Counted from the stretch's first letter, positions 6,731 to 28,636 are shown. The stretch is 64,000 nucleotides of DNA from an uncultured virus (IMG/VR IMGVR_UViG_3300031994_000090) (IMGVR_UViG_3300031994_000090); one strand, 5' to 3'. Notes: a model not told the origin generated them from the sequence alone. Made by a program: numbers and translations.

Positions 6731-7054
6731 ATGGAACAACCAATGACCGAAGCCCAAAGGGCTCAATATCTTATCGACCACTGTTGCGGAGGTTCGGCGG
6801 CTGAGTTCGCGAGAGCCATAGGGATAGACAAGGCCCGCATGTCTCGGATAGTTCACGGCCACTTCCGCTTAAACAAACTCTTTGACCGCATCATTGAAGC
6901 CTACCCGAACGTAAGCCCGCAATGGCTTCGTACCGGCGAGGGGTATCCCGGCGACATTTCAACCGAACTGGTGAAGCAGAGGCTTACGAAGATTATTGAA
7001 GAGAAGGATGCGCTTATAAGGACACTTCAAAGGGTAATAGAGGAGAAGTTATGA
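6731..7054 (+). CDS. Second XRE-family HTH regulator
   Basis: SAAEFARAIGIDKARMSRI...VSPQWLRTGEG. Confidence 0.7.
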   Translation: MEQPMTEAQRAQYLIDHCCGGSAAEFARAIGIDKARMSRIVHGHFRLNKLFDRIIEAYPNVSPQWLRTGEGYPGDISTELVKQRLTKIIEEKDALIRTLQRVIEEKL

Positions 7055-8220
7055 AGTTTAACTGGAACCTATATGCTCCCAATAAGGAGAGCAGTCCGAT
7101 AAGGGTGGTTATCAACCATCACGGGAAGACATATTACAAAGCCATTGGTATAACCATCCCCACAAGACAATGGAAGATACCCAAGAGAGGCCCGCAGTAT
7201 TGCACCGATACCAAAGTGGCGGCAAAGATGCGCAAGATTGACCTCTACCTCCAGACCTATCTCGATGATTACTCCACCGAGGAGGACATTCGCAAGGTGC
7301 TCTCGGGAATCGCCGCAGGGCGGGCAGAAATGCCCGTAGAAACGCCCGAAGCCCCCAAGACCTTCTGGGGGTTCTATGACGAGTATGCGGCCCGCGAAAG
7401 GCCCGCAAAACGCCAACATGTAAGCACCAATAAGATAATCGGTGAGATAATGGGTAGGCACGATGATTGGAACGACCTGACGGATGGGTGGTTCAGAAGG
7501 CTCGTGGACGGATTCAACGCCCGAAACTACTCCGAGAACTACAAGTCCTCGATGATAACCAAATTGAAGTCCTGTCTGCAAGAAGCCCTTGATGCTGGAT
7601 TTCATCACAATACCGCTTTCCTTCGCGTCAAAAAGAACTTCATGCCCGCAGATAGTATCTACCTCACCGAAGAGGAAATCGAGCGCCTGTGGGCCTTGGA
7701 ATTGAAAGATAAGCACCTCTGCGCGGTTCGAGACCTTTTCCTCCTCGGCTTCTACACGGGTGCGCGGTTCGGGGACTACTCGCAGCTTGACGAAAGCATG
7801 ATACGGGATGGGGTGATACACCTTACCTCCCGAAAGACGGGAGTGGAGTCGCTGATACCCTGCTCCCCAAGGGTGGTGAAGATGCTTAAGCGAAACGGCG
7901 GGCATGCACCGAGAATGTCCCAGGTGGAACTCAATCGGGAGATAAAGACGGTCTGCATGTATGCGAAGATAAACCAACCCGTCACGACCACTATCGTTAA
8001 GGGCGGTAAGCAAGTCAAGACCACGAAGCCGAAATATATGCTTGTGTCAAGTCATTGTAGCCGGAGGTCATTGGCGACCAATCTGGTTCTGCAAGGTTTG
8101 CCCGAAAGGTCTATCATGCTCCTTACGGGACATAAGAACGAGAAGAGTTTTGCTACCTATGTGAAATTGACAAAGGAAGAGAACGCGATTGCTTTGAAAG
8201 GTAATTCGCTATTCAAGTAA
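7051..8220 (+). CDS. int: Tyrosine integrase
   Basis: TGARFGD, HCSRRS, TGH, TY catalytic residues; N-terminal arm-binding-like domain. Confidence 0.92.
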   Translation: MKFNWNLYAPNKESSPIRVVINHHGKTYYKAIGITIPTRQWKIPKRGPQYCTDTKVAAKMRKIDLYLQTYLDDYSTEEDIRKVLSGIAAGRAEMPVETPEAPKTFWGFYDEYAARERPAKRQHVSTNKIIGEIMGRHDDWNDLTDGWFRRLVDGFNARNYSENYKSSMITKLKSCLQEALDAGFHHNTAFLRVKKNFMPADSIYLTEEEIERLWALELKDKHLCAVRDLFLLGFYTGARFGDYSQLDESMIRDGVIHLTSRKTGVESLIPCSPRVVKMLKRNGGHAPRMSQVELNREIKTVCMYAKINQPVTTTIVKGGKQVKTTKPKYMLVSSHCSRRSLATNLVLQGLPERSIMLLTGHKNEKSFATYVKLTKEENAIALKGNSLFK

Positions 8221-8967: not shown

Positions 8968-9261
8968 AGTTCAATTATTAAAAACCGCATCAGTAGGTAG
9001 GGACTACTGACGCGGTTATATAGATTGCCCCTTACGGGACTACTCTATTTCGTGTTTGCGCACCGTTCCCTACTCGGTACAGTGCAAAGGTAGCAATTCT
9101 AACAACAATATACAACACTTGTTGCGTTTTTTCAAATAGAAAAAGCCACGAGGGCATAATACCCCCGTGGCGACCAATCAAAAATCACATTTCACCATGA
9201 AGTGTGATAGTGGCCATGGTGGCGGTCAGGCGACCATGGCCAAGTGCAAAGATAGCATTTT

Positions 9262-9597
9262 CTACGACAACCCCTTCGTGTTAGGGTTAATCATATCGGA
9301 ATGCTGTTGATACATATCTGCGCATCCCATAAGGTAATTTCCGAATTTCCGGGCATCGCCGAAGCCTTTCAATCCCTTCGCCTGGGCGATGCAATAGGCG
9401 CCAAGGGTGGCGAGATTGTGCGGGCCTATCTGGCCGCTTCCGAGAAGGCTGATTAGGCACCCTCCCATCTTCTGTTCGTCCCCACGCATGGCGATGCAGA
9501 CTTTGTTCTGGGCGTCAGACTGCACTGCGATGGTGCAGTTAAGGTTATTCTCGACCACAAGGTTTTTGATTTTCTGTATAACTTCTTCTGGTGTCAT
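9262..9597 (-). CDS. Hypothetical protein
   Basis: 111 aa ORF in early array. Confidence 0.6.
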   Translation of the reverse strand: MTPEEVIQKIKNLVVENNLNCTIAVQSDAQNKVCIAMRGDEQKMGGCLISLLGSGQIGPHNLATLGAYCIAQAKGLKGFGDARKFGNYLMGCADMYQQHSDMINPNTKGLS

Positions 9598-9601
9598 AGT
9601 G

Positions 9602-10444
9602 CTACATTAAGAATGATTCTACTTTCGGATTGAGTTTTACATCGTGGCGGACTATATACCTTGCGCTCATGGCGGGGTTGGTATGACCAGCGAGTTGCAT
9701 GATGTCAAGTATATCCGTCCCCAGGTCTGCAAGGATGGTGCAGAATGAGATTCTTGCAGAGTGCGAGGAAAGGAACATCCACTTCGGGCCGGAGATTTCC
9801 TTCCCGGCCTTATACACACTTACCTCCGTGTTGATTTCCGCCCTCTGCGCCAGTTCCCTTACCATGTTGTTGTAGTAGGAAATAGAGAGGTTCTGCTTGC
9901 CGTGTTTATGCAACCATTCCACTTTTTCCTTGGTTGCGTCGGAGCAGATGATTGTGGATTGGATGCGAGTCTTCTTTGACACGTAGTTCAGATACCACCC
10001 ACCTTCCTCCCGCTTCTGGAAGTTCGAGGGAAGCAGCTTGATAAGGTCAGAGTGACGAAGGCCGGTCTTGCAGGATACATAGAACCCGTCCCGGACGGTT
10101 CGTTCCATGTCGGAGTCGAGCCAGGCGTTACCGAAGGCTTCCACCTCCTCTTTGGTGAGGTAGGTTTTCATCGGAGCCTCATTCTTGGCCTTGAGGATTT
10201 CACGATAGTTTTTCGGGAGGTTCGGCAATTCATCCTCGAACTGCGCAAGGAATGCTTTGAGAACGGCAAAGGTGGTGTGTGCTGATGATGGGGCCATGGT
10301 TTCCTTGACTTCACCGGCGAACCTTGTAAGGTGCCATTTGTCAAAGTCCTCCCATCTGTCTATGTGGGCCGTGGCAAGGTGCTTCACTATGCCCGGCTTC
10401 TGCCTCGGGTTGAGGCTCTGGAGTGCTTCTTGTAGCGGTATCAT
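9602..10444 (-). CDS. Second tyrosine recombinase (short, no arm-binding domain)
   Basis: TGLRHSD, HSARIS, AGH, RY; 280 aa. Confidence 0.88.
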   Translation of the reverse strand: MIPLQEALQSLNPRQKPGIVKHLATAHIDRWEDFDKWHLTRFAGEVKETMAPSSAHTTFAVLKAFLAQFEDELPNLPKNYREILKAKNEAPMKTYLTKEEVEAFGNAWLDSDMERTVRDGFYVSCKTGLRHSDLIKLLPSNFQKREEGGWYLNYVSKKTRIQSTIICSDATKEKVEWLHKHGKQNLSISYYNNMVRELAQRAEINTEVSVYKAGKEISGPKWMFLSSHSARISFCTILADLGTDILDIMQLAGHTNPAMSARYIVRHDVKLNPKVESFLM

Positions 10445-10458
10445 GGTTTGATTGGATT

Positions 10459-10713
10459 TTAGAAGATGCGGATAAACACATTGTCCGAACTTATACGGCC
10501 CTGGAGGTCATGGTTAAACTCCCTCTCAAACGAGTGGCCTCCGTAAATTCCACAGAGGCGGTTATCATCGCCCTCGGAAGTGATAGCGAGTGAGCGACAT
10601 TCGGTTTCCTTGAGGGTAAGAACCTTCTCGACAAATTCGTCTTCCAGTTCGCGGCCTTCTCTTTTCGTAAGATACTGCCTTGCAGCATCCACGGCGAATA
10701 CATAAATCTTCAT
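10459..10713 (-). CDS. Hypothetical early protein
   Basis: Start MKIYVF after leader motif. Confidence 0.6.
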   Translation of the reverse strand: MKIYVFAVDAARQYLTKREGRELEDEFVEKVLTLKETECRSLAITSEGDDNRLCGIYGGHSFEREFNHDLQGRISSDNVFIRIF

Positions 10714-10908
10714 AGTGGTGTTCTTTAATTGGTTTATTGGAGAAGAAGTAGGGCTACCGGCCCCGCCTCTTCTGAATCTTGTCCGACACTGCGAATCCGA
10801 GGCCAACAAGAATCCCCTCCGCTACCCAAATGCCATTCCACTCGTAGAATAGAGCAGCAAGGGTAATCATGAGGACAATGATAGCGAAGTAAGTGATTTT
10901 GAGTTTCA

Positions 10909-11085
10909 TTACGATAGTTTTTTAATGATACGATTGAGCTGGTTGATTTCAACTTCAGCTTTCGGAATGTCGTCAAAATCGCGGAATCTCTTGTCGTCCA
11001 TTATACGGCTACGAAGTGCACCGATTTCCATCTGGCAGAGTTCCGTAAGAACGGATACTTCTTTGGTTGTTAATTCTACTTGCAT
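10909..11085 (-). CDS. Small hypothetical protein (58 aa, below ORF-track cutoff)
   Basis: MQVELTTKEV...IKKLS* after leader motif. Confidence 0.5.
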   Translation of the reverse strand: MQVELTTKEVSVLTELCQMEIGALRSRIMDDKRFRDFDDIPKAEVEINQLNRIIKKLS

Positions 11086-11148
11086 AATGTGAAATTTTGA
11101 TTGGTGAATTAGCGGTTAAAGGGGCGGCATCACCCGCCCCACAACCAA

Positions 11149-11385
11149 TCAAATGCAGCCATCATTGGCCGCAGTGAAGACCTCGTGTGCATCCCTCGCA
11201 TACTCCTTGAACTCCCTTGCCATCGCAAGGTCTCCCTCCTTTGCACACTGGTCCGCAATCGCCTTCATTTTCTCCTCGCAGTCGAACATTGCATTCTTAA
11301 CCCGAAAGAGCTGGCTAAAGGTCAAACCAGAGATTGAATATCGAACCCCGTCATTGGTGGTTCGTTTTGTAACTCTTACTGCCAT
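11149..11385 (-). CDS. Hypothetical early protein
   Basis: ORF after hairpin/leader motif. Confidence 0.6.
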   Translation of the reverse strand: MAVRVTKRTTNDGVRYSISGLTFSQLFRVKNAMFDCEEKMKAIADQCAKEGDLAMAREFKEYARDAHEVFTAANDGCI

Positions 11386-11448
11386 AGTGAAAAAGATTTT
11401 TGATTGTTGGCAAGCACTGGCGCGGTCAGGCGCCGGTGCCCGTGAGGA

Positions 11449-11763
11449 TTACTTCACCCGCAGTTTCTTGCGCACCTCGTCGCAGATTTGACACCAGATA
11501 ATCGGGTTAGTGTACCAGTGGCTCCCTCCCTTGTAGTCGAAGCAGAGAACTTCTCCGGTATGAGGCGGATTTTGCTTTACCAACTCAACCACAATTACCG
11601 GATAGAAATCAAATCTTCCCGAGGGGCTTTCGGACACCGCCTGCACTTCTCCCGACAACTCCAGTTTCTTGATGCCGTTGGCATTAAGAAGGTCGCGGAT
11701 TTCATATTTGGCTTTCTGGTTGAGGGCGTCAATGCGCTCCTCGTAGGTTTTTCTTTTGCTCAT
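11449..11763 (-). CDS. Hypothetical early protein
   Basis: Start MSKRKT after AACCAATCA. Confidence 0.65.
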   Translation of the reverse strand: MSKRKTYEERIDALNQKAKYEIRDLLNANGIKKLELSGEVQAVSESPSGRFDFYPVIVVELVKQNPPHTGEVLCFDYKGGSHWYTNPIIWCQICDEVRKKLRVK

Positions 11764-11823
11764 AGTGTTTTGTTGATTGGTTTGGCGACCACGCACCCGG
11801 TCAAAGGTGCGCAGTCATGGGGT

Positions 11824-12090
11824 TTACGCAAACACCTCCGATAGCCTCGGCAGTCGGTCCACGACTACAAGGTCGTCATAGATGGTGCGCAGTTCAGAGA
11901 GTAGTTCTGCGTACTCACTCTGCGCTGCCGGTTTGGTGTTTTTGCGGTAGAAATCCAGTGAGCAAGGACCATGTTGCCCCACATGCTCATAACTTGTAAG
12001 CATGTCCTTGTTCCAGCAGATAGGGAAAACGGCAATGATTTCGCCATAGAAGTCCTTCGTGCAGACTTTTCTGAATACAACTTTTGTCAT
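11824..12090 (-). CDS. Hypothetical early protein
   Basis: VVFRK...IAVFP...SYEHVGQHG. Confidence 0.65.
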   Translation of the reverse strand: MTKVVFRKVCTKDFYGEIIAVFPICWNKDMLTSYEHVGQHGPCSLDFYRKNTKPAAQSEYAELLSELRTIYDDLVVVDRLPRLSEVFA

Positions 12091-12096
12091 AGGGCG

Positions 12097-12438
12097 TCAA
12101 TCTAATTTGTCGGCGATATTGCGGAGGTCTGCTTTCCATTCCTCCAAGTCCTCATAATGCTCGCGAGTATTGTCGAAAGGGACGCCCTTTGCATGAGCGG
12201 CCTCGCGACCATTCTGCCACCAGAGCATCACTTCTTCGTCAATGTCGAAATCGTCAAGGTACTTATTGAGGCACTTGCGCGACGGCTCGTCAAGGCAAAT
12301 AATCATATCCCCTCCGGCGTTGGTGTAGTATTCCAGTTCCACAGAGTTGGGCTTGTCCGCCCACACCGGCTCGGTGTTGCAGACTTTTACATCGTATTCT
12401 TCCAGAATCGCGATGTTTTTCAAGAATTTTTTATCCAT
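12097..12438 (-). CDS. Hypothetical acidic early protein
   Basis: Start MDKKFL after AACCAATCA. Confidence 0.65.
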   Translation of the reverse strand: MDKKFLKNIAILEEYDVKVCNTEPVWADKPNSVELEYYTNAGGDMIICLDEPSRKCLNKYLDDFDIDEEVMLWWQNGREAAHAKGVPFDNTREHYEDLEEWKADLRNIADKLD

Positions 12439-12498
12439 AGTGATATTTGATTGGTTTGTGGAGGCCCATGGCCCGGTCAAGAGCCATAAGCCAAACTG

Positions 12499-12750
12499 TT
12501 ACCAGTCTTTGCGAATCAAATCCACAAGACGACCGCAGACCCCGACGGAGGTTTCATCGGCGTGTCGCTCGAAGGTTCCATTTTCATAGCATTTTCCGTT
12601 ACCATGGAGGCGCTCATACGCCTCATTATGCCGGTGTATAAGCGCCATGCAGATTTCATACTCCTCCGTCTTGTTGAGGTGGTCGAGAGACACGAGCCCG
12701 AAGAGTGGGCCTTTAGAGTAACATTTTGATTTTGTTGCTTTGCTTTCCAT
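12499..12750 (-). CDS. Hypothetical early protein
   Basis: ORF after hairpin/AACCAATCA. Confidence 0.6.
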   Translation of the reverse strand: MESKATKSKCYSKGPLFGLVSLDHLNKTEEYEICMALIHRHNEAYERLHGNGKCYENGTFERHADETSVGVCGRLVDLIRKDW

Positions 12751-12855
12751 AATGAATCAGTGATTGGTTTGTAGCGAATAGCCACCCGGTCAGAGGTGGC
12801 TATCCGAAGGAAGAATGGTGTCGGCGGGACGGAGCCCGCCTCCAAGAAAGAAGGC

Positions 12856-13395
12856 TTAAGCCTCGCTTGCGCTCGGTTTTTCAAGATGCGCCACGGGCAC
12901 AACAACGCAGGTGTTATACAAGTTGTTGCTGCCGAAGAAACCGTAGCCGCCACTCGCAACCCACGCGCCGCCGGCGCTGACACGAAGGCAAGACCAAAGG
13001 TAGGAACCTTCGGGGAGAAGGTCTGCGCCCTCTATCTGCTTCGCAAGGGCGTTGATTTCTTTCTGGTACTTCTTGATGGCTCCGGCGGTAAGGAGAGAAG
13101 GAATGTTGAACTTCTCTCCGATGCCACGCACGAACTTCGCTGCCGGGCTATCCAGCTTCAGCAGTTCATCGGTGCGCTCTTTGCAGAGGTCGGTGTCTTC
13201 AAAAAGAGCCTCAATCTCCGAATGGCCCGGCTCCTTCCAGTCGTCAATGCGACTGGCGTTAAGAAGTTTGCACTCCTTGTATTTGGGATACACCAGAATG
13301 GTCGCACCGTCAATCCTCGGAATTGAGATTCCTTCGATGGCATCCAGTTTCATTTCGTCTTCGCGACCTTCTTTGAAAATGAGTTTTGCTTTCAT
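12856..13395 (-). CDS. Remote DGR target protein (179 aa, C-terminal CLec-like variable region)
   Basis: C-terminus GSYLWSCLR...AW...VVVPVA is encoded by a 122-bp TR copy differing only at TR adenines. Confidence 0.9.
   Translation of the reverse strand: MKAKLIFKEGREDEMKLDAIEGISIPRIDGATILVYPKYKECKLLNASRIDDWKEPGHSEIEALFEDTDLCKERTDELLKLDSPAAKFVRGIGEKFNIPSLLTAGAIKKYQKEINALAKQIEGADLLPEGSYLWSCLRVSAGGAWVASGGYGFFGSNNLYNTCVVVPVAHLEKPSASEA
12887..13008 (-). repeat. DGR variable repeat VR2
   Basis: 18 mismatches to TR 48216-48337, all at TR adenines. Confidence 0.95.
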
Positions 13396-13468
13396 TTGTT
13401 GTGAAATTAAATTGGTTGAACATAAGGGTTGGCGCACTCCGTTCCGGCCAGGGAACGGAATGCAATGG

Positions 13469-13714
13469 TTAATCTTGGAAGTGCCCCTCCACAAGATAGA
13501 GAGAGAAGTCCTCGCCCTCACTGGTTTGACCGCAAATGTCAAACTCGTAAAAGCCCTTATCTGCATTGAACTTGTCTCGACGGTGACGAACCACCCACTT
13601 ATCTGCGAGGGCAAGAGAAAGGTCGCTTTCGAGCTGTTTCTTTGCATTTTCCCACTTGTGGTAATAGCGCTCAAACACTCGCCTGCCTACTTCTTTGACG
13701 TAGATTGTAAACAT
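13469..13714 (-). CDS. Hypothetical early protein
   Basis: Start MFTIYV. Confidence 0.6.
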   Translation of the reverse strand: MFTIYVKEVGRRVFERYYHKWENAKKQLESDLSLALADKWVVRHRRDKFNADKGFYEFDICGQTSEGEDFSLYLVEGHFQD

Positions 13715-13725
13715 GGCTACACCTC

Positions 13726-13944
13726 CTAAAGATAATATCTCAGCCCGTCGTCTGCGACGAACCATTTCTTCAGTACGAGAACTCCATTTACGGTGTTCTT
13801 CTTGCGGTTTACCACTTCTTCCAGAGGGAAGTCGCGGTAGTGTGTTGCGCCATAGCCGAATTTAATCTCGGCCCTCGTGGGGTTGCGATGATACGTGACA
13901 TGCTGCACCCCATTGATTATGGGGTTGAATAAACTTGTACTCAT
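13726..13944 (-). CDS. Hypothetical early protein
   Basis: Start MSTSLF after AACCAATCA. Confidence 0.6.
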   Translation of the reverse strand: MSTSLFNPIINGVQHVTYHRNPTRAEIKFGYGATHYRDFPLEEVVNRKKNTVNGVLVLKKWFVADDGLRYYL

Positions 13945-14095
13945 AGATTTGTGATGTTGATTGGTTGATAAAAGAGAAGCCACCCACTCGGTCAGGAGTG
14001 AATGGCTTGGTATTTATTAAAAATCCTTAATGCGGCTATCTCACGACAGTCTGTTGTTATGAATAAATCCCGCATCACTGCGGTCAATTACGATG

Positions 14096-14126
14096 CAAAT
14101 GTAATGATTTTTTGGCACCCTGCAAA
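14096..14126 (-). promoter_or_regulatory. Internal Bacteroidota promoter upstream of remote DGR target
   Basis: Minus strand TTTG-N19-TACATTTG. Confidence 0.65.
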
Positions 14127-14151
14127 ACGGCCAGGTCTTGCAGGGCGAGAT

Positions 14152-14796
14152 TCACTTCGCACGGTCCCACCAGTCTGGATAGGTGCCGTTGATTTCGTTG
14201 AGCCCGTCATAGAGGCTAATTACCAGCTCTTCGAGGGTTTCACGAGGAACATTCTTGATGTCGTCCTTTTTGAAGGTCGCATCCACTTGGTTGATAAGGG
14301 CGCGAAGGGGATTCTGCGGAGGATTGTACGATACAACCTTGCCGAATACCATGCACACGTCGCGTTGGCAAACGTAGCCGGAGTCCGTACACTGTTGGCC
14401 GTTGTACTGGTCGATTTCCTCAATCATGTCGTCGGTGACATCTGCAAGTTTGGGATATTCCATTCTCAGGCCCTCGCCCTCTGCGTATCCGTCATAGTAT
14501 TTAAGGCAGAAGTTGTGCTCCTTTTCGTCCCCGAAGAACTCTTTGGAAACCACTTCGATGTCCTCGGTTTCCTCGACATACTTGACTATCACGCCCGCAC
14601 CGTTTATCCAGTGCACTTCCCGTCCCTCGCGGAACCAGGCATCGGGAAATTCCTGACGGGTGCGCAGTACAATGCCACCGTAGGACATTTCACCGCCACC
14701 GACGATTTGCAGAATTGCATCCTCGCAGTCTGCGATAACGACATTCGCATTGTCGTCCACGCCTTCAAGTAAGGCTTTCAGTTCTTTTGCTTTCAT
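14152..14796 (-). CDS. Hypothetical acidic early protein
   Basis: Start MKAKEL after motif. Confidence 0.65.
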   Translation of the reverse strand: MKAKELKALLEGVDDNANVVIADCEDAILQIVGGGEMSYGGIVLRTRQEFPDAWFREGREVHWINGAGVIVKYVEETEDIEVVSKEFFGDEKEHNFCLKYYDGYAEGEGLRMEYPKLADVTDDMIEEIDQYNGQQCTDSGYVCQRDVCMVFGKVVSYNPPQNPLRALINQVDATFKKDDIKNVPRETLEELVISLYDGLNEINGTYPDWWDRAK

Positions 14797-14858
14797 AGTG
14801 ATGAATTTTATTGATTGGTTTGCTCCCATGGTCACGGTCGGGTGGCCATGGGAAAAGT

Positions 14859-15089
14859 TTATTCTCCCGCAGTGCAGAAGAAATCATCAGGAACGAAGTC
14901 AATGCCGTCGTACTGGCGGAAGATTACATCGTCAGGGACAATCTCGTCCGCATTAGCGACATCCCACATTGAGGGTTCATCGTAGTCCCGGTCCATCACT
15001 TCGGCAAAAGTGCCCTCGTTTACCAGTTCTACCATGTAGTTGTTTTTCAGTTCCGTGAGCTGTTCACGGGATAATTCCGTTACGTGCAT
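14859..15089 (-). CDS. Small acidic early protein
   Basis: 76 aa, D/E-rich. Confidence 0.65.
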   Translation of the reverse strand: MHVTELSREQLTELKNNYMVELVNEGTFAEVMDRDYDEPSMWDVANADEIVPDDVIFRQYDGIDFVPDDFFCTAGE

Positions 15090-15150
15090 AGTATTGATTT
15101 GATTGGTTGATTGACACCTTGCCTACGGTTCGGTGTAGGCAAGATGAAGG

Positions 15151-15513
15151 TTAGTCAAGCAAATCGCTTGGCCAGTAGCCGTAATCGCTCCCGTCGCCGG
15201 GGTGAGCGCCGAAGAAATATCCGTCCGGAGCATAAGCATCCAAGACATCAAACAAATCCTCCAGAAACATGGTCACATCTTCGGAAGACCAACGTTCGTC
15301 ATTCTCGCTCGTGTCACCGGCGGTAATCACGCAGAGATTCCAGTTGGCACCATTGATGCTCTGAATCATCTGCGCATACTCCATCGTATCCTTGATTGCT
15401 TCAAGGAATGTCGGAACCAGGTCGCAGTTACGCATCGTGCCGTGGATAAGGGTTGCACCAAGCGGAGCATAAATCACACTCCCGGTGCGTTCATCGGTAA
15501 ATTGTCTTTCCAT
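15151..15513 (-). CDS. Hypothetical early protein
   Basis: Start MERQFT; C-terminal APDGYFFGAHPGDGSDYGYW. Confidence 0.65.
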   Translation of the reverse strand: MERQFTDERTGSVIYAPLGATLIHGTMRNCDLVPTFLEAIKDTMEYAQMIQSINGANWNLCVITAGDTSENDERWSSEDVTMFLEDLFDVLDAYAPDGYFFGAHPGDGSDYGYWPSDLLD

Positions 15514-15569
15514 AATGATTGTTGATTGGTTGGCGCCAGTGTGGCGGTTCATGGCCACACTGACAAAGA

Positions 15570-16217
15570 TTAGTACGCAAAGGCGGTTCTCGCATACAAC
15601 GGCGCAGAGTGCTTGATTTGCTCCTTGCGCTTGTTGATGTGGTTTGTGAGGGCGGCTTTGTAAGCGACCATCGCCTTCTCGCGCCTGTCCTTCAATTCGC
15701 AGTCGATTGCGTTTTTGGCTTGCTGGATTGCATCTTCGAGGCCATCGTCGCCATAGAATCCCCAACAGGAATCAATGTGCTCTCCGTCCTCATCCTCTGC
15801 AACATATCCGTAAACCTCGCCTTCAAGGTACATGTTCCACTCGCTCACGACTGATTCAGCAATCTTTTCGGCCTTGGATTTCGCCCAGGACCAACCCTTA
15901 CGGCGTTTCACGCAGATAAATGCGTAGCCGTTGGAATAGTCCCAGCCACGGGTTGTACCCAGGTGGATGCAGATACCGCTATGGTCGTAGATGCTCACGG
16001 GGAAGATGTAAAATCCATTCAGGAACCAACGGTTCGTTTCTTCGATTGCATTTCTACAATCCTCTGCGGAAATACTCTCTGAATCCACGTTCAGACAGCG
16101 GTAATCCGCGCAGAGGAAACAATCTGGATTGTCCCAGTTTGCCGGGGATTCAGCATCCTCGTCGTAGCAGATTTTTATCGACATACCTTTGTAGCCAATA
16201 GTTTCTTTCTCGTACAT
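15570..16217 (-). CDS. Hypothetical early protein
   Basis: YDHSG...WD...YLEGEVYGY...DSCWGFYG. Confidence 0.7.
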   Translation of the reverse strand: MYEKETIGYKGMSIKICYDEDAESPANWDNPDCFLCADYRCLNVDSESISAEDCRNAIEETNRWFLNGFYIFPVSIYDHSGICIHLGTTRGWDYSNGYAFICVKRRKGWSWAKSKAEKIAESVVSEWNMYLEGEVYGYVAEDEDGEHIDSCWGFYGDDGLEDAIQQAKNAIDCELKDRREKAMVAYKAALTNHINKRKEQIKHSAPLYARTAFAY

Positions 16218-16278
16218 AGTGATTTAATTTTGATTGGTTGTGGCTCCCTCGCGGATTTTCACACCCGCAAGGAAATGG

Positions 16279-16548
16279 TTAGTTTTCGTAGCCGATGATG
16301 CGCTCCACGGCAGCAATAAATTCATCGCTCCCGTCAGGAATCCGGCCACCACCGCGCTCGGCATCATGCCGTTGCAGAATGAACGTGTGGATTGCATCTT
16401 TCAGAGCAAGTTCCAGTTCGAGGTTTTCTTCCTCATACGGCTCCTCCTCCAGTGCATCCTCCAGTTCGTCCATCACATCGTAGGCGCTGAGGTTTTCTTC
16501 GCCACTTTCGTAGCGGTCCATAAGTTCGGTGATTCTTTTCTTAAGCAT
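16279..16548 (-). CDS. Highly acidic small protein
   Basis: MDELEDALEEEPYEEENLELE. Confidence 0.65.
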   Translation of the reverse strand: MLKKRITELMDRYESGEENLSAYDVMDELEDALEEEPYEEENLELELALKDAIHTFILQRHDAERGGGRIPDGSDEFIAAVERIIGYEN

Positions 16549-16603
16549 AGTGATTGTGTAGATTGGTTGTTTGCGATGGTTTGCGGATTCCTCCGCAAGC
16601 CAC

Positions 16604-17053
16604 CTAAATCACGGCTCCCCACAAACTCATTCGGTGAGTCACTTGCTTACCGTTCACGGGCCCGTCCTTGACAAGATACGGTTTGAAACACCCGTCAAAA
16701 TACCGGGGCCGGAACGTGATGCCGTTGAACTCAAAACTTCCCTGCGTGCCGAACATTTCAAGCAGTTCGTCGAGGGTTTTGTCAATCTCGATACGACCGC
16801 ACTGGCGATATTTCTCGAATAATGCACCATTGTACCGCTCTGCTGCCTTGCAGTTCCGTTTCGGACTGATTTCAAGCGTCAGTTCGTCGCGGAATGGTTC
16901 GCCCTCGCGTTTCTTGCCGTAAATTCGCAGGGATTCGAGATAACCCCAGGGGGAATAATCCCAAATGAACCCAAGGCGTTTGAGGTACGCAAGACCGCGT
17001 TTGTTCACAACCTCCCCAACGGGAAGATTCTGAAAGTATTCTTTCATTTTCAT
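16604..17053 (-). CDS. Hypothetical early protein
   Basis: Start MKMKEY after motif. Confidence 0.6.
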   Translation of the reverse strand: MKMKEYFQNLPVGEVVNKRGLAYLKRLGFIWDYSPWGYLESLRIYGKKREGEPFRDELTLEISPKRNCKAAERYNGALFEKYRQCGRIEIDKTLDELLEMFGTQGSFEFNGITFRPRYFDGCFKPYLVKDGPVNGKQVTHRMSLWGAVI

Positions 17054-17116
17054 AATTAGTGTGATTTGATTGGTTATGGCGGTTCGCCGGGTAATCACAC
17101 CCGGAAAACCATTCAT

Positions 17117-17497
17117 CTAATTCCATAACGGGAATTTGTGAGAATCATACCAAGGATGATACGCAAGGGCTTTTCGTATAGCCGTCTTGAGGCTCCTTCC
17201 ATGATAGAGCAGTATCTGCCCCTCTCTGCCAAGTTCATCAATGTCCGGGCATAAATTATCCCACACATAGAAACTCCCGTCGTTGTCGTCGCTAATATAA
17301 CAACGTGTGCTGGCGTGTCCGTCCTTGATAATGTCGGAAATGTCGGCCAACTTCGTGCCTGGTTCGTCATTACCCTGGAGCCAACATATTTGGCGTCCAA
17401 ATGGCTGATAGACTCCAGTAATCTCTTTTTTCGAGTTGGTGTGCACATATCCATTCAGTGCGGCAGCAATAGTGTTGCAGAATTTCTCGTAATTCAT
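17117..17497 (-). CDS. Hypothetical early protein
   Basis: ORF after motif. Confidence 0.6.
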   Translation of the reverse strand: MNYEKFCNTIAAALNGYVHTNSKKEITGVYQPFGRQICWLQGNDEPGTKLADISDIIKDGHASTRCYISDDNDGSFYVWDNLCPDIDELGREGQILLYHGRSLKTAIRKALAYHPWYDSHKFPLWN

Positions 17498-17558
17498 AGC
17501 AAATAGATTTGATTGGTTCGGTTCCTCCCGGTTCGTTTCAGGAGCCGGGAGAAATGGT

Positions 17559-17909
17559 TCATTTTGCAGGGACTGCTACAAGAGCCGGAGAATCACGCGA
17601 GAAAAGGAGGCTCGTCCAACGCAGTCGTTTCACACGGTAGGCGTGACCGCAGTCGATGGCCATCTGCGCATATTCACGCATACGCCATACTTCCTTTTTG
17701 CAGAACGCCATGAAATTCTCGTCGCTCTGCTCCATGCCGGTTTCATCACACACTTCGCAAAACAGCTCCCACATGGGGTCCTCTATTTCGCAGATATTCA
17801 TTGCGTGGCCGTGCCACACAATCTCCGGGTCGGCCCAATCTCCGTGGTACACAAAACGGAATCCGTAAATTCCCATCCAAAGGGGCCAGGGTGATTTGTT
17901 CTTACTCAT
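17559..17909 (-). CDS. Hypothetical early protein
   Basis: Start MSKNKS; HGDWADPEI. Confidence 0.6.
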   Translation of the reverse strand: MSKNKSPWPLWMGIYGFRFVYHGDWADPEIVWHGHAMNICEIEDPMWELFCEVCDETGMEQSDENFMAFCKKEVWRMREYAQMAIDCGHAYRVKRLRWTSLLFSRDSPALVAVPAK

Positions 17910-17971
17910 AATTGTGATTGATTGGTTTGTTGGTGCCCGTTCGTCCGGCCAGGGGCGAGCGGGCAAATTGT

Positions 17972-18274
17972 TCACTGCAAGTCCACGGCACAAAGCGCCA
18001 CGCGGATGCAACTCTTTTCCTCTGGTTTCGCGTACACCTTTGCAGCAGACAGTTCGTAGGTCCCGTCCACGGTTGAGAATCCGGTGGCCGGAGAAATCCG
18101 TTCAACCCGTCGCTCAGGATAAACCCGGTCGTAGAGGTTCGTCAGGCGCGACTCGTATTCATCCACCGCTTTTGCGTAGGATGAAAACCAGGCGTGCGTT
18201 ACGCACCGGGATTCCAGTTTGTTCCCGTCCTCGTCAAACCACTCGTGTTTGACACAGTAGATAGATTTTGCCAT
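17972..18274 (-). CDS. Hypothetical early protein
   Basis: Start MAKSIY after motif. Confidence 0.6.
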   Translation of the reverse strand: MAKSIYCVKHEWFDEDGNKLESRCVTHAWFSSYAKAVDEYESRLTNLYDRVYPERRVERISPATGFSTVDGTYELSAAKVYAKPEEKSCIRVALCAVDLQ

Positions 18275-18337
18275 AGTAAATTGTGATTGGTTCATGGTGC
18301 CCTACGGTTCGTTCAAAAACCGCAAGGCAAAAGACGG

Positions 18338-18979
18338 TTACAAGTTGCGCTCGTATGCAAAATCGTCGTTCATTATACTTTCCGCAACGCAAAGCAAATG
18401 ACCTTCTGAATTTTGCTGGCGGTATCCACCCTGGAAACGGGTGACACTGCCACAGTTCCACGAAAGGACCGGCTGATATTTCAATCGTCCCTTCGCTGCC
18501 GGAGAAACCGCACCGTAATACAGTCCGATGGTTGAATCGTCAATCTCATACTGGTCCCGAAGGAAATACTGCATCAATTCCGGATTTCGTTCGTCAATCG
18601 GAAATTCCACGGTCAAATCCAGGTCGTTGTGGATGTACTCAATCGTGAGAATCGTTGCGAACTGCTTCGGAGCACGGCTCGTTTGCATGCGATACGGGAG
18701 CATGGCGTAACCATTTTTGCTCCCGGTGTACACGCGACAATTCTCCGTCATGGGCAAATGGTTCAGAGCGTTCTGCGCATCCCGTTCGGTTAGCGCCTTG
18801 AGTCGGTCGTCGGCCCTGTGCACCACGACATGAATCTTTCCTTTCTGCGTGAGCGAATTTCCATCTATGATAACGATTTGGATTCCAAACTGCTGAAGCG
18901 GTTCGTTGTACTTGTTCTCCAGTTCTGCGAGGCGAATTTTTTCTTCAAATTCGGCCCTCATTTTAGCGATGTCGTTCAT
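18338..18979 (-). CDS. Hypothetical early protein
   Basis: Start MNDIAK after motif. Confidence 0.65.
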   Translation of the reverse strand: MNDIAKMRAEFEEKIRLAELENKYNEPLQQFGIQIVIIDGNSLTQKGKIHVVVHRADDRLKALTERDAQNALNHLPMTENCRVYTGSKNGYAMLPYRMQTSRAPKQFATILTIEYIHNDLDLTVEFPIDERNPELMQYFLRDQYEIDDSTIGLYYGAVSPAAKGRLKYQPVLSWNCGSVTRFQGGYRQQNSEGHLLCVAESIMNDDFAYERNL

Positions 18980-19043
18980 ACTTTGTGAATTTTGATTGGT
19001 TTGTGCGCACGGTGGTTCGTTCAGGAACCACCGCACATGCGGT

Positions 19044-19328
19044 TCATTCGTCCTCGGAATCGTCCTCGTTCTCCTCCAGTTCGATTCCCAGTTCGTTGGC
19101 TAAATCCTCAACGGTATTGTCACCGTAGGAATAGAACATTTCTTCGATGCCCTCCAGGTCCTCGCCGTGAGTTTCCGCGTAGAAATCCACGGCTTCACAA
19201 ACACGGCTCTCGGAAATCGCTGCGCGTTCCATCAGTTCGTTCAAGGTCTCCTCGCTCTGCGTGCGGAAGAAAAACCCACGCACGGACGGGTTCGTCCAGA
19301 GCTGTTCAAATGTAATTTCAGCTTTCAT
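19044..19328 (-). CDS. Highly acidic small protein
   Basis: C-terminus ELEENEDDSEDE. Confidence 0.65.
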   Translation of the reverse strand: MKAEITFEQLWTNPSVRGFFFRTQSEETLNELMERAAISESRVCEAVDFYAETHGEDLEGIEEMFYSYGDNTVEDLANELGIELEENEDDSEDE

Positions 19329-19397
19329 GATAGTATTTTGATTGGTTGATTCGTGACCGGAAATTCCGCCAGGAATAACCGGCCTTGTCACGGTTCG

Positions 19398-19643
19398 TTA
19401 CAGAGAGAGCATCACGGCACCGGTTCGTTTCAAGCAGCGGTCGTAATCCCGTTCGTTGTACCAGTTCAATGCGGTACGCATCGCACGGTTCGTTTCGTTC
19501 ACGGAGTTTCCCGCAGCCCGCAGTTCACGGCTCGCATCAAGCATAGCCTGAATTGCGGTTCGTCTGGCACGGTTCGTTTCCTTGATTCGTTTGACCTCAC
19601 CAGGGAAAAGCCTCTCAATAACTTTGCAGATAATCTTTTTCAT
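19398..19643 (-). CDS. Basic hypothetical protein with ETNRA repeat
   Basis: Start MKKIIC. Confidence 0.55.
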   Translation of the reverse strand: MKKIICKVIERLFPGEVKRIKETNRARRTAIQAMLDASRELRAAGNSVNETNRAMRTALNWYNERDYDRCLKRTGAVMLSL

Positions 19644-19710
19644 AATAGCAGAATTTTTGATTAAACATTTGGTGCATAGGTGGATAATCACACCCACCTA
19701 CACAATCACT

Positions 19711-19929
19711 TTAACGCATCGCATACTGCACCGGGAGATTGTTCGCCGGGGAAATCCGTTTCCCTATCTCCGCCAGGAAATTCGAGCGATACGCAGCACG
19801 TGCGGACTCGTTCGTGAACTGCCGGGAGAAAATCTCCGCAATCGTTTCGCAGTCGTTCATCAGGGCGAAATTGCGCCCGTCCTCGCTCCCAGTCTGACTG
19901 GCAACGTGGATAATGCTCGTTTTACACAT
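19711..19929 (-). CDS. Hypothetical early protein
   Basis: Start MCKTSI after motif. Confidence 0.5.
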   Translation of the reverse strand: MCKTSIIHVASQTGSEDGRNFALMNDCETIAEIFSRQFTNESARAAYRSNFLAEIGKRISPANNLPVQYAMR

Positions 19930-20317
19930 GGTTGATTTTTGATTGGTTAAGATATTTTGCAATGGTGTGCAGCGTTCAACCGCACACCACCCAGGCGAAT
20001 TTTTACAGCTCGTTCCGTTCCTGTTTTCCTCTCCCGGCATCCATATTCCAGGGCCCGTTTTGAATGTCTGTGACGACAAGCCATTTCCGCCCGTTCAATC
20101 AATCATTCACTATTTTTTGCAGTGGAGAATCATTCGCGTAAATTGCTATCCATTCACCAGCTTCCAGGATTCATTCATCCCCTCAACCGTTCACCGTTCA
20201 TCCAGGGAATCACGTTCCCCAGATTCAGGCAACCACTGCAAGCCCGTTCAAAATACGGTGCAGATTTGCGAGCGCACCAGGAACACACGAAAATAACGGC
20301 CACACAAAAATTTGTGC

Positions 20318-20352
20318 AGTCGTTCCGTTCGTTCGTTCGTTCCGTTCGTTCG
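20318..20352. repeat. GTTC/GTTCC microsatellite
   Basis: GTCGTTCCGTTCGTTCGTTCGTTCCGTTCGTTCG. Confidence 0.8.
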
Positions 20353-20515
20353 CTATTTCAAAGGGCATCGGATGCCGGGACTACTTCGCGCCCGTCCTGG
20401 ACTTATACCTATTTTTTGGGGCGTGGTGTAAATTTCACTTTGCACCACACGCAAAACAAAATGCCCGGCCAAAATAGCCGGGCAAATTGTAATATTAAGA
20501 TAGTGCCAAAAAGAT

Positions 20516-21016
20516 TTATTTTGTAGTGTTTTCTTTGTAGATTGTTTCAAGGGCTTTAATAAATGCCGGAATTTCCGAAATAGCGACATTTGCCGGGACG
20601 TCAAATTTACGTATCTTGTGGAATTTTTCGTTTTCCGATGCGCTTAAATTGTCAATCATTTTTGCGGAAACAATAGCCGGGCCAAAAGTTTTGACGGCCT
20701 CGGAAAACGGCAAAGTTTCGGAAAATGTAGCGACGGCCTCGGAATCAGTAACGGCCCGGAAATTGTTTTCTATTTCCTCGGAAACAGTCCCGGAAACAAG
20801 GGCGGAAATATAGGCGGACTGAATTTGTATTTTTTCGTCCTTTGTCAAATATGCGCCCTTTTTGGACTGTGAAACAGTGATAACGGACGGCAAATTTATG
20901 CCGTTTTCGTTATAAAATGCCGTTACTACATTAAGACGGCTATTTCCGTCTAAACTTGTAAAAGTGGCTTTTTGTGCCGTGGTGCAATACTTTGCAAAAT
21001 TTTCTATCTTATTCAT
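20516..21016 (-). CDS. Hypothetical protein, first gene of array (AT-rich)
   Basis: 166 aa ORF downstream of promoter at 21113. Confidence 0.7.
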   Translation of the reverse strand: MNKIENFAKYCTTAQKATFTSLDGNSRLNVVTAFYNENGINLPSVITVSQSKKGAYLTKDEKIQIQSAYISALVSGTVSEEIENNFRAVTDSEAVATFSETLPFSEAVKTFGPAIVSAKMIDNLSASENEKFHKIRKFDVPANVAISEIPAFIKALETIYKENTTK

Positions 21017-21112: not shown

Positions 21113-21143
21113 CAAATATACAAAATAATCCCGACAATACAAA
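21113..21143 (-). promoter_or_regulatory. Bacteroidota promoter heading the early array
   Basis: Minus strand TTTG-N19-TATATTTG. Confidence 0.7.
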
Positions 21144-22153
21144 CATTTTACAATATTTTTTGCACTTTTTTCGTCTTTGTAAGTGCTTGAATATCAATAA
21201 GTTAGAAAAAAATTTAATACCTTATTAGAATAATTTACATTTATAAGTTATTGATTTTCAATGAGTTACAAAGGTAGTTTTGAAAGATTCTAAACTATAT
21301 TTCCAGGAAGACCAGAACGGAAAAAATGTAACATCTTTGTTACTTTTGCCGTTTCGGTGGTACACTTTCGGAGAATGTAACAAAGTTGTTACATATCGTA
21401 AAACGATAACGGATAAAAACTTACTATTATAAGGTATTTTTGCCGTAACTACTTGAAAATCAATAAGTTAGCCACCCGGGCCCCCCGCACAGTTAAAAGG
21501 TATAGTCACCCACCCCAGACACCTAATTTTTTTTCTAAATTTTTGAAATTTTCAATTTTTCAGATTCCGCCCCTATCCCCTACGGGGATAAATAGCCCGG
21601 AAAAGGGCCTATTTTAAGCCCGGAGCCCTCCAGATGACCTCTACTGCCACCGAGGGCCTCAAACCTTCCAGAATCGCCCGGAATGGGCCAAAGCGGGGCG
21701 TTTTGCCTCCTTTCTCCCTTCCGGCTCAGCGGGAAGCATCTTCGATAGAAGCTGCATGAGAATAGCGGCGAGCGCGTACATGAAAGACAATCATCATCAA
21801 CCGAAGTTGTATCGGCCATCATGGTCCTTCCCTCATACGCGCTCACACGTACACGTGTATATCACTCTCTGGGAGTGGTGGTGGAGAAAGGGGGATTATA
21901 GGGGGATTAAGGAAGGAGATTGTAAGGGGAAACCATTAAGGGGGCAAAGGGGGATGGAGGCGGAGGCGCACCCTCGTAAACCCTGCAAGTGCATTATTTT
22001 TATTGTTTTTCGATAAAATTCAAGGTGAAAACGGCCTTGTTTTTGACTTTTCTTGACTTTTCTTTCCTTTTTTATATCAAAAATAGGATGGAATCTTGCT
22101 CCATCCTATCTGATTTTTGTGTTTGATTAACTTTTGTTTGACTTTGTTGGATT

Positions 22154-23874: not shown

Positions 23875-24645
23875 TTAAACTTCTTCTTTCGGTTTTTTCT
23901 CCCGTTTCTTATAGTGACGCTTCGGCGGACGCCCCAGTTTCTTTCCGTTGACGGAGTATCCGGGACGCGGGACGTAGTAGTCTTTCTTGCCGGAGTCTTC
24001 CGGGGCGTCTTCCTCCGTCTGCTTCTCGGGCTCTGCGACCGCAGTGGCCTCCGGCTCGGTAATGACATGGCTGCCACGGAAAGGGCAGGTGTCGCACTCG
24101 GGGCGCGGGAGGTAGAAGTGGATGGTGGTGTCGTCCTCGCCGATACCCTGGCGGCGCTTGAGACGGTCGTACTTATCCAGGAGGTCCACGCGCTTGGGGT
24201 CCTTGGGCTCAAGTTGCGTGATGGTCTCCCACATTCTCGCGAGGATTTCCTCGTCGCCGACCGGCGCCGTTTCGCCTTGCCAGAGTTTCCTTTCCAGATA
24301 GGTGGGGTTGTTGGTTGCGCTGATACTGCTTCCCTTCTTGGCCCCGCGTCCGTCACTCTGTCCTCCGGGGGTGGGGTGGATTTTCTGGTACTCGTCAAGG
24401 ACGCATCCGCCCCGCATCTGCGCCTGGCGCTTGCGGACGAGTTTGGTAATGGCTTCGGATGTAGTGAAGGCGACAGCGGCGTGAGCGGCCTCCACCTTCT
24501 CGTCGGACTCCTTGACGAAGCCCACGGCGAGCATGGCGTCAACTGGGTCCCATCCCCACGCCATGAGTTCCGCCACGGCCAGTTGCCTGACGTCCACCTT
24601 CTCGGCCTTCGCACGGCTCTTTCTTTTTGTTGAAAAATCAATCAT
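23875..24645 (-). CDS. Hypothetical protein, possible terminase small subunit
   Basis: Start MIDFST; helical N-terminus, CxxC, basic tail; in packaging operon. Confidence 0.4.
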   Translation of the reverse strand: MIDFSTKRKSRAKAEKVDVRQLAVAELMAWGWDPVDAMLAVGFVKESDEKVEAAHAAVAFTTSEAITKLVRKRQAQMRGGCVLDEYQKIHPTPGGQSDGRGAKKGSSISATNNPTYLERKLWQGETAPVGDEEILARMWETITQLEPKDPKRVDLLDKYDRLKRRQGIGEDDTTIHFYLPRPECDTCPFRGSHVITEPEATAVAEPEKQTEEDAPEDSGKKDYYVPRPGYSVNGKKLGRPPKRHYKKREKKPKEEV

Positions 24646-25427
24646 ATTTCGTTGGTGTAAACTACATAACAACAACAGCGCGGATGGTAGGGTGGCATTC
24701 CTTCGAGGTCGTTGGCCGCGTGGAGGAATCCTACCTGCGCGTCGCAAATCTCACAAGGGAATGAGGAGCCGCGATAGACATAGTAGCCGCGCTTTCCTTC
24801 GTTGAGTCTCGCCCAGTTCTGCATCCATCCCTTTGCCACGAGTGTCGTCAGGAGGACGGAGAGGGCGGTTGCGGAGGCTATGGGGTTTCCCTTCCCGTAG
24901 TGCGGGATATTCTCAAGGCGAACCGCATCGCCTTTTCCCATGTGCTCCTTTATCCACGGATTGTCGTAAGGGCGGTCGAGGTATTGGCGGACCACGGCGA
25001 GGATTTTCCCCTGGTCCTTGATGCCTTCAAGCCCGGCGGCGGCGATAGTGGCCTCCAGTTCATAGCCCCAGCGAGAGGTGTACTCTGCGAGTCTCTGCCG
25101 GAAGGTCTTGTTCTTGTATGAGGTGGTAAGGACGGGTGCTACGAAGGGTGTGTCGTTTTCTCCATCCTTGAATGTGTCAATGGTGGCAACGTGGTCGTAG
25201 AGGGCGTCGCGCAGAAGCGCGAGGACCTGATTGACTTCCGCCAGAAGAGACGGGTTGGCAGAGAAGCGGAAACTCTCTGGGGGAATGTTGTACCGGCGGG
25301 AGATTTCCACTATCCGCCTCGCGGCGGAGAGAAGGGCTGTGTCAAGTTCTGACACAACCAGTCTCTCTGCCCGGAGACGGAGAAGAAGATAGTCCTTTGC
25401 TCTCGCTATTTCTTGCTCGGTGGGCAT
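24642..25427 (-). CDS. Head morphogenesis (SPP1 gp7/Mu F-like) protein
   Basis: CEIC...PPYHPRCCC C-terminus; follows portal. Confidence 0.75.
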   Translation of the reverse strand: MPTEQEIARAKDYLLLRLRAERLVVSELDTALLSAARRIVEISRRYNIPPESFRFSANPSLLAEVNQVLALLRDALYDHVATIDTFKDGENDTPFVAPVLTTSYKNKTFRQRLAEYTSRWGYELEATIAAAGLEGIKDQGKILAVVRQYLDRPYDNPWIKEHMGKGDAVRLENIPHYGKGNPIASATALSVLLTTLVAKGWMQNWARLNEGKRGYYVYRGSSFPCEICDAQVGFLHAANDLEGMPPYHPRCCCYVVYTNEI

Positions 25428-28542: not shown

Positions 28543-28557
28543 TTTGACTATTTTTTG

Positions 28558-28616: not shown

Positions 28617-28636
28617 CACCGAGTATAGACAGGCTT

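Follow-up and report, generated by a model that had tools for sequence, protein, structure and literature searches.

What is the hairpin that recurs at the starts of a whole row of phage genes, and does it serve to move these genes or to express them? We asked this of a stretch of 64,000 nucleotides (in its full length, the window) from an uncultured virus (IMG/VR IMGVR_UViG_3300031994_000090), in which an array of ~24 short, mostly unannotated accessory genes (10444–19996, minus strand), collinear but variable among relatives, is punctuated by a hairpin-plus-motif element and ends at a short tyrosine recombinase. An earlier interpretation made without database searches (the sequence-only reading) had offered two options: an integron-like cassette system, or a repeated RNA element. 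Its RNA and translation option fits the data, its integron option is not supported, and it overlooked an antisense module at 9140–9254. As judged by complementarity and by comparison with relatives, we consider it probable that the array's standard leaders, which have no Shine-Dalgarno (SD) sequence, are under the control of one trans-acting antisense RNA encoded by this module, which likely blocks ribosome loading on ~20 accessory genes.

A hairpin-plus-leader module heads the genes of the array

Exact copies of the motif AACCAATC number 19 in the window, against 2.72 ± 1.58 expected (maximum 6 in 100 shuffles), and 16 of the 19 lie on the minus strand, from 11775 to 19948; near-matches are present at 10449, 10726, 11098, 11401 and 13409. 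This bears out the claim of 16 exact copies plus five near-matches, the exact copies lying on one strand in 11.7–20 kb, and the proposed cassette grammar is likewise confirmed for 21 hairpin-led gene starts, with a few genes of the row having no element (13469–13714, 11824–12090, 10734–10908, 9262–9597 and 20516–21016). A hairpin whose folding energy lies between −16.8 and −24.0 kcal/mol, and which ends 19–37 nt 5′ of the ATG, is found at 21 of the 22 motif-led starts, the sole exception being the start of the recombinase, which has a motif near-match at 10449–10457. The median fold of the elements is −19.9 (versus −9.1 for 400 random 48-mers), their stem length is nearly constant, and the motif sits at approximately −24 to −10 relative to the ATG. 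With the axis set on Watson-Crick pairs only, the stems of 20 elements hold 195 Watson-Crick, 32 G-U, 7 A-C and 6 other pairs; as G-U pairs thus far outnumber A-C pairs, the fold belongs to the coding strand. In sum, the start module consists of a 12–13-bp hairpin and, between it and the ATG, an A/C-rich leader that is free of structure and contains AACCAATCA. The recurring loops noted by the sequence-only reading stand where it had placed them, although the one near 9211 marks no cassette boundary: its hairpin forms the 5′ portion of another module. Loop types that recur across lineages with different leaders are CTGACC (13), TTGACC (12), GTGATA (12) and CCGACC (8).

The leader resembles what is known of translation initiation in the probable host group. 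The host is inferred to be a member of the Bacteroidales because the closest two genome-bin relatives carry the labels Paludibacteraceae and Bacteroidaceae, and initiation in Bacteroidota is favoured by A at −3, −6, −12 and −13 and by low structure (PMC6847099; here and below, published work is cited from excerpts of the papers). A stands at −3 in 19 of the 22 starts. While the array leader fits this preference, the exact word is specific to the phage lineage: the motif-spacer-ATG pattern has 9, 8, 2, 4 and 14 matches in five host genomes, and in two of these, metagenome-assembled genomes with a relative of the phage, the prophage contig accounts for 8 of 9 and 7 of 8 matches, including in each case the antisense copy. 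With just 2–14 matches per host genome, a generic host ribosome site was rejected. The coding-strand fold, the motif position and the rarity in hosts all agree with the RNA option of the sequence-only reading, in which the repeated element has to do with translation in a host that does without SD sequences. A role as terminator, judged from sequence alone, was ruled out, since the coding strand shows no T run behind the stems. Searching 8.5–22 kb against Rfam gave no relevant family to E 5 (2 chance matches), and four related loci gave one tRNA only. A loop-plus-motif scan of viral contigs yielded 120 single-match loci, a chance-like result that we set aside.

The elements, each running from hairpin to ATG, are:

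19929–19996, minus: element of gene 19711–19929
19643–19704, minus: element of gene 19398–19643, with a degenerate motif
19328–19396 (upper limit approximate), minus: element of gene 19044–19328
18979–19040, minus: element of gene 18338–18979
18274–18329, minus: element of gene 17972–18274
17909–17965, minus: element of gene 17559–17909
17497–17554, minus: element of gene 17117–17497; between other genes in L122, ahead of another gene in L202
17053–17116 (upper limit approximate), minus: element of gene 16604–17053
16548–16604, minus: element of gene 16279–16548
16217–16275, minus: element of gene 15570–16217
15513–15565, minus: element of gene 15151–15513; 94% identity in L202 over 63 bp, flanking genes not aligning
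15089–15146, minus: element of gene 14859–15089
14796–14854, minus: element of gene 14152–14796
13944–14008, minus: element of gene 13726–13944; an internal −7 box lies upstream at 14096–14103
13395–13464, minus: element of gene 12856–13395, a remote target of the phage's diversity-generating retroelement (DGR)
12750–12806, minus: element of gene 12499–12750
12438–12492, minus: element of gene 12097–12438
11763–11816, minus: element of gene 11449–11763
11385–11442, minus: element of gene 11149–11385
11085–11151, minus: element of gene 10909–11085, with a built-in motif complement at 11143–11151 that overlaps the upstream stop codon; kept in L122
10713–10773, minus: element of gene 10459–10713

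The built-in complement of the element at 11085–11151 could sequester the leader until a ribosome terminates at the upstream stop. Runs of GTTC/CGTT repeats are found at 20240–20360 and 19390–19600, and GAAC words also occur in several hairpin loops and after stops.

The array closes with a predicted antisense RNA

A non-coding module complementary to the leader is placed 3′ of the recombinase and of a 111-aa gene. Its parts are:

9140–9242, minus: predicted small antisense RNA of ~103 nt, with 5′ hairpin, second hairpin, unpaired seed and terminator (fold −51.1 kcal/mol)
9247–9254, minus: Bacteroidota −7 promoter box, kept in L202 and absent in L122, L282 and L283
9211–9242, minus: 5′ hairpin of the RNA, with a CTGACC loop as in array elements
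9172–9208, minus: antisense part, complement of motif, spacer and ATG
9172–9183, minus: unpaired seed of 12 bases, complement of ACCAATCAAAA
9184–9208, minus: second hairpin, complement of spacer and ATG
9140–9171, minus: intrinsic-terminator-like hairpin (9145–9171) plus T run, closing the array

The −7 element of Bacteroidota is TANNTTTG, its G lying at −5 (PMC6847099), which places the predicted +1 at 9242, where the 5′ hairpin begins. Four related loci (L202, L122, L282 and L283) have conserved the island, and the homology of relatives stops at 9131–9141. Its core TTTTTGATTGG is invariant, and 8 of 35 stem pairs are changed on both sides, that is, compensated; in the 5′ hairpin, 5 of the 13 pairs are changed on both sides and 2 of 65 cells are broken. 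In L122, L282 and L283 the module has no promoter of its own and stands directly after a stop codon, like one more cassette. Among the traits of a trans-acting multi-target RNA that can be read from sequence, the module possesses a promoter box with terminator and an unpaired, conserved seed.

The complementarity is directed at the array. Pairing with the seed has a median of −22.5 kcal/mol for the 27 array-region starts versus −13.3 for 59 other genes (p 2e-9), the five array-region starts that have no element reaching −7 to −16; with folding costs included, the values are −13.5 for the 22 element starts versus −5.3 for 25 other minus-strand starts. The pairing covers the −20 to +5 region required for initiation. 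The motif may well be conserved because the module at 9140–9254 matches it. A covariance model was built for the RNA module and run on 77 sources: it returned at full score only the five training sequences and one duplicate of L122, the array hairpins scoring weakly. A scan with the seed pattern gave 121 matches, of which one had the architecture, with a sequence identical to L122.

Seed and leader change together among relatives

As picking the best antisense window in each genome would be circular, candidates were set blind: the 36 bases before any terminator-like site on both strands, with opposite-strand sites inside the array excluded, were scored against each genome's array starts, which were themselves selected by one rule. 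Eight genomes, among them that of the window, are complete to 70% or more, and in 7 of these the genome's own starts pair best with a coding-strand module. The best and second-best values for the seven are −21.8/−11.6, −21.8/−11.1, −17.4/−10.6, −20.5/−10.3, −21.9/−10.9, −15.8/−9.4 and −12.2/−10.3, and a −7 box (once as TATCTTCG) is present at 6 of the 7 best sites versus 30 of 122 sites overall. Starts of another seed type give −7 to −15, while in a wider cross table the related GAGTTATG, G006 and G007 types partly overlap, down to −17.8. As judged by these predicted energies, the five seed types mostly do not cross-match:

AACCAATCA: the window's clade
AAAACCAATAAA: L142 and L207
GAGTTATG: G002, G008 and G014
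CCTCTAAA..GCATTATG: G006
ACCCTTAAA: G007

The position of the module varies: in some genomes it follows the recombinase, while in G002, G006 and G007 it precedes the array by kilobases. It always comprises a small hairpin at the 5′ end, an antisense part that is largely open and a terminator. The seed is kept, but no loop hairpin of the window's kind is present, in the candidates of G002, G006, G007, G008 and G009. Frames running from the ATG complement on the opposite strand are 1–54 codons long or absent; in G006, where the AUG complement is reached only via a G-U pair, there is no opposite-strand start codon. Antisense k-mer matches in L133, L143, L127, L307 and L204 proved to be opposite-strand repressor or integrase starts and were rejected as RNA.

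The start of the CI-like repressor gene matches the genome's own seed in G002, G008 and G006 (−20, −21 and −27; two seed types) and shows no match in the window or L122 (−7 and −9), so the place of the RNA in the life cycle may differ between lineages. CI-like repressor starts carrying the array leader motif are seen in L143 (13271–13927), G008, G006, L133 and L127. In L200, three hairpins, which have the loop type of that lineage, and a terminator make up a unit 3′ of the recombinase (1406–1546), and two array starts are found there.

The recombinase is a member of the row

An integron consists of one-gene units parted by sequence-variable hairpins beside a tyrosine recombinase. Its attC sites have inverted core sites at both ends (RYYYAAC ... 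GTTRRRY), and it is further marked by a fixed crossover per site, reordering of cassettes, entry of new cassettes beside the integrase and excised circles. The array brings this arrangement to mind through one fixed gene:

9602–10444, minus: short tyrosine recombinase, 280 aa, with the full catalytic set

The gene is intact: the product belongs to PF00589 (E 3.8e-10), and R130, K158, H228, R231, H254 and Y263 are invariant in 47 aligned relatives. Its predicted fold is of the Xer or lambda type (mean predicted local distance difference test score 92), the best folds being XerH, XerA and lambda Int. The IntI-specific insertion is absent: the integron integrase model TIGR02249 gives 18.6 bits versus a cut-off of 265, the recombinase profile aligns over 94–257 with XerD 110–278 with no long gap, and its alignment with IntI4 is confined to 216–256 (41 C-terminal positions). 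At the array elements attC-like inverted core sites were not found: AAC-like words have the same orientation on both sides and the 3′ end lacks a GTT core.

Could the recombinase nonetheless excise and insert genes at the hairpins, acting as folded single-stranded DNA sites? It is always last in the variable row, the G-T bias of the stems is compatible with folded single-stranded DNA too, and the junctions between related arrays cluster at the elements: 35 of 41 lie at most 15 nt from a stop, ATG or motif versus 18% expected (30 joint ends, taken from the 15 joints listed out of 20, plus 11 ends of alignments with L202, a twelfth, at 9128, having been dropped since it is outside the array). 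However, the junctions divide into 14 at the stop, 10 at the ATG and 11 at the motif, and therefore there is no single crossover point; the suggestion that gene gain and loss break at the element holds for its edges, on both sides of it. The order of shared genes never differs: all 56 pairs of the window's clade agree (0 discordant), as do 10/10, 346/346 and 196/196 pairs in three other groups. Elements persist while the genes beside them change: 15511–15572 has 94% identity in L202, where the genes on either side of it do not align, and 17494–17555 has other neighbours in L122. The gene next to the recombinase also occurs in L202 and three sequencing runs, changes starting at 10734. Among the joints listed from eight DNA runs, available as contigs only, no cassette-sized back-joint of an excised circle was present; a few short back-joints with element-sized matches cannot be read as circles.

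Relatives of the recombinase also flank rows that have no such hairpins (L123, L125, L131, L126, L168). The alignment of 47 recombinases led to 240 loci, plus one making 241, of which 16 have at least 4 hairpin-leader-ATG units under a strict filter, a looser one adding L124, L128 and L134; gene maps were drawn for 37 loci and the window. In those phage loci that extend far enough upstream, the short recombinase closes a row of variable genes, and the rows of some relatives have the same loop types with other leader motifs. The hairpin-less rows of L125, L131 and L130 carry other repeats (promoter-like stretches and a different recurring leader), and in the arrays of L128, L133 and L204 a second, shorter tyrosine-recombinase-like gene (228–248 aa) is a unit of the row. 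As cassette capture by the recombinase would also leave the antisense module unexplained, we consider it highly improbable. On our reading the recombinase is a row member and not the shuffling enzyme of the row, and the elements bear the mark of conserved regulatory modules with exchange between them rather than of one crossover point; if so, a hairpin-punctuated row beside a short recombinase need not be an integron.

Proposed mechanism and alternatives

The features ahead of the array on which the proposed mechanism draws are:

21113–21120, minus: −7 box, likely array promoter
21269–21276, minus: −7 box, likely array promoter
21179–21205, no strand: 27-bp imperfect palindrome beside the promoter boxes, candidate operator
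21243–21269, no strand: a second such palindrome
21445–21471, no strand: a third such palindrome

We infer that the antisense RNA is produced and that it represses translation by pairing. The row would be transcribed from the promoters near 21.1–21.3 kb, beside the three palindromes, which are possible operators. Each gene would have a hairpin just beyond the ribosome footprint and then an open leader; pairing would start between the unpaired seed and AACCAATCA, spread across the start codon and block initiation, a repression such as that of GcvB at C/A-rich enhancers and of FopS at Bacteroides start regions. The hairpin likely marks or shields the 5′ end, because the predicted +1 coincides with it and because promoter-less versions of the RNA would need release from a long transcript. 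Such promoter-less RNA (L122, L282, L283) would be cut from the array transcript, giving delayed negative feedback; as the last unit, the RNA would bring about a delayed shut-off, and an RNA with its own promoter could also silence the row in a lysogen. Gene gain and loss would come about through recombination, either homologous or at microhomologies, between the conserved modules, possibly with the help of the Sak4-like and NinB-like recombination proteins that the phage encodes, and any gene placed behind the standard leader would come under the RNA.

A more far-reaching version, which we find tentative and rather unlikely, would make the array a plug-in regulon with RNA immunity. The hairpin would be a processing mark by which a 12-kb transcript is cut into single-gene messages, with the antisense RNA released last, so that a set interval after switch-on the row would be shut off by its own product, and new genes would be enrolled automatically. 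Where an incoming relative has the same seed, its accessory genes would be silenced by the RNA of a resident prophage; seed and all 10–20 leaders would be driven to change jointly, giving new immunity types, and in some lineages the CI repressor start would be enrolled as well.

Several points weigh against control by a common antisense RNA. By raw duplex energy, 43 of 226 non-array ATG-led frames, many of them spurious, reach −17 or below; the ATG-complementary part is contained in the second hairpin, which has to unfold before it can pair; and the promoter box is missing in 3 of the 5 members of the window's clade. Among the relatives, G008 fails the blind test on the median, with 5 of its 11 own starts at −15 or better and a promoter- and terminator-flanked candidate that fits G002 starts, and the margin of G014 is small, 3 of 7 starts fitting. 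No module was found in any of six fragmentary records (G001, G003, G004, G010, G011, G012; 30–64% complete), of which four have hairpin arrays. The five seed types represent at most five independent events, a count made with no tree, and the conserved loop sequence is unexplained by any test that we ran.

Alternatively, the elements could be modules for strong expression only, a stabilising hairpin plus translation enhancer that doubles as recombination substrate in the manner of the T4 PeSL cassettes, and the antisense copy an inverted duplicate of one element, kept because the terminator comes from it. A-rich unstructured starts raise translation in Bacteroidota (PMC6847099), in line with the prevalence of A at −3; moreover, 9145–9199 has the order hairpin, motif, ATG when taken on the plus strand, some array elements of G006 and G007 look like antisense-plus-terminator on the opposite strand, and several k-mer antisense matches were plain gene starts on the other strand. 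What makes this account improbable is that the opposite-strand frames are short and unconserved (37, 44, 20 and 25 codons, spread over two frames, and absent from G006 and G009), that the seed is invariant while the stems covary, and that a matching seed with its own promoter box and terminator recurs at different positions, in G002, G006 and G007 kilobases upstream. We judge it quite improbable that the RNA, while real and pairing with the leaders, acts mainly by guided cleavage or decay at each element or by titrating a loop-binding protein. Such an effect would suit the loop hairpin that the window-clade RNA shares with its targets, the recurrence of loop types across lineages with different leaders and the near-constant stem length; however, the pairing spans the −20 to +5 initiation region, and G002, G006, G007, G008 and G009 keep the seed without such a loop hairpin. 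Pairing of the antisense RNA with the leaders to block initiation thus remains the reading that we prefer.

If this is correct, one short RNA address in every leader controls ~20 unrelated, fast-changing genes, address and reader being rewritten jointly, whereas the phage antisense RNAs described in the excerpts cited below are each directed at a single gene or operon. The row could then take up genes whose effects are unknown, and might be harmful, with no new regulation. The natural seed-leader pairs, mostly non-cross-reacting, would be candidate tools for SD-less Bacteroidota and would offer a handle on the function of A/C-rich leaders in this group.

Other features of the array and the phage

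The 27-bp palindromes occur nowhere else in the genome, with three copies also in G005, and may be operators or recombinase sites. Inversion of the promoter region between them was rejected: the matches of three relatives hold no inverted segment except the 32-nt repeat itself. Among the array proteins, 3 of 24 match PHROGs of unknown function, none is above the cut-off against Pfam and 0 of 25 match PADLOC; the Atlas gave unnamed viral clusters under 0.9 (one protein only). The array gene 12856–13395 (minus) is a second, remote target of the phage DGR: its repeat 12883–13009 differs from the template 48215–48341 (plus) at 19 of 127 positions, 18 of them at template adenines. The repeat is followed by a hairpin (12808–12860) resembling the one behind the tail-gene target; the gene has another variable region in L202 and in G005 follows that genome's own template.

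The first 127 bases of the 67,128-base virus contig, of which the window is 64,000, are repeated at its end, and the genome is therefore circularly complete at 67,001 bp. The window codes for terminase, SPP1-type portal, major head, tape measure, holin and endolysin, as well as for the DGR, helix-turn-helix repressors and a full-length integrase at 7051–8220; the phage is a temperate, gut-associated siphovirus. One sequencing run that contains the whole stretch is a sheep gut metagenome, possibly its source; among 24 sequencing runs listed, no RNA run contained the sequence, a result that carries no information on expression. The terminase, portal and head-morphogenesis genes (24642–28722, minus) are opposed to the capsid and tail genes (30278 onward, plus) and point at the array. 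A tRNA search of the window found none.

Comparison with known systems

By the tests that we ran, the system belongs to none of GcvB, FopS, C4, PeSL and integron, and the literature covered (subscription journals excepted) describes neither the element nor a single RNA that matches an entire row of phage genes. It shares with integrons the one-gene units parted by variable hairpins beside a tyrosine recombinase, but has no IntI insertion, inverted core sites, single crossover point or reordering. The PeSL cassettes of T4-type phages are promoter-plus-terminator units that punctuate a hypervariable row of small genes (PMC2839356), and repeated regulatory modules at which gain and loss break, here at 35 of 41 junctions, are common to both. 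The array elements, however, have neither promoter box (0 of 10 minus-strand −7 boxes in 8.9–21.7 kb lie inside an element) nor the T run by which a PeSL stem-loop would terminate, and the excerpts of PMC2839356 mention no antisense partner.

GcvB is likewise one RNA with many targets, pairing with C/A-rich sequences that themselves enhance translation (PMC3879156); it serves a host amino-acid regulon with scattered targets and SD sequences too, whereas the phage RNA is phage-encoded, has ~20 adjacent targets with a standard leader and a seed that varies by lineage. FopS and GibS of Bacteroides thetaiotaomicron have a sigma-ABfr promoter, a single-stranded seed and a terminator, and several mRNAs are repressed at their initiation regions (PMC11697453). 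Promoter, open seed, terminator and initiation-region pairing are thus shared; however, these are fourteen host paralogues on polysaccharide loci that act with RbpB, while the phage RNA is a single copy with extra 5′ hairpins and no Rfam match.

The C4 RNA of P1 and P7 is cut from a longer transcript, and small seed changes separate its immunity groups (PMC5320573). Like the RNA proposed here, it is a phage RNA acting on the phage's own genes, with pairing at ribosome-binding regions and specificity defined by the seed; but C4 pairs through two loops (a′ and b′), whereas the module has its seed in a linker and gave no relevant Rfam match to E 5 in 8.5–22 kb. The phage small RNAs described in the excerpts of PMC12197685 are single-target or host-target only, and C4, sar, OOP, aQ and 24B_1 each act on one gene or operon, mostly in the lysis-lysogeny switch (PMC5320573, PMC12197685), whereas the RNA predicted here would address a whole variable row.

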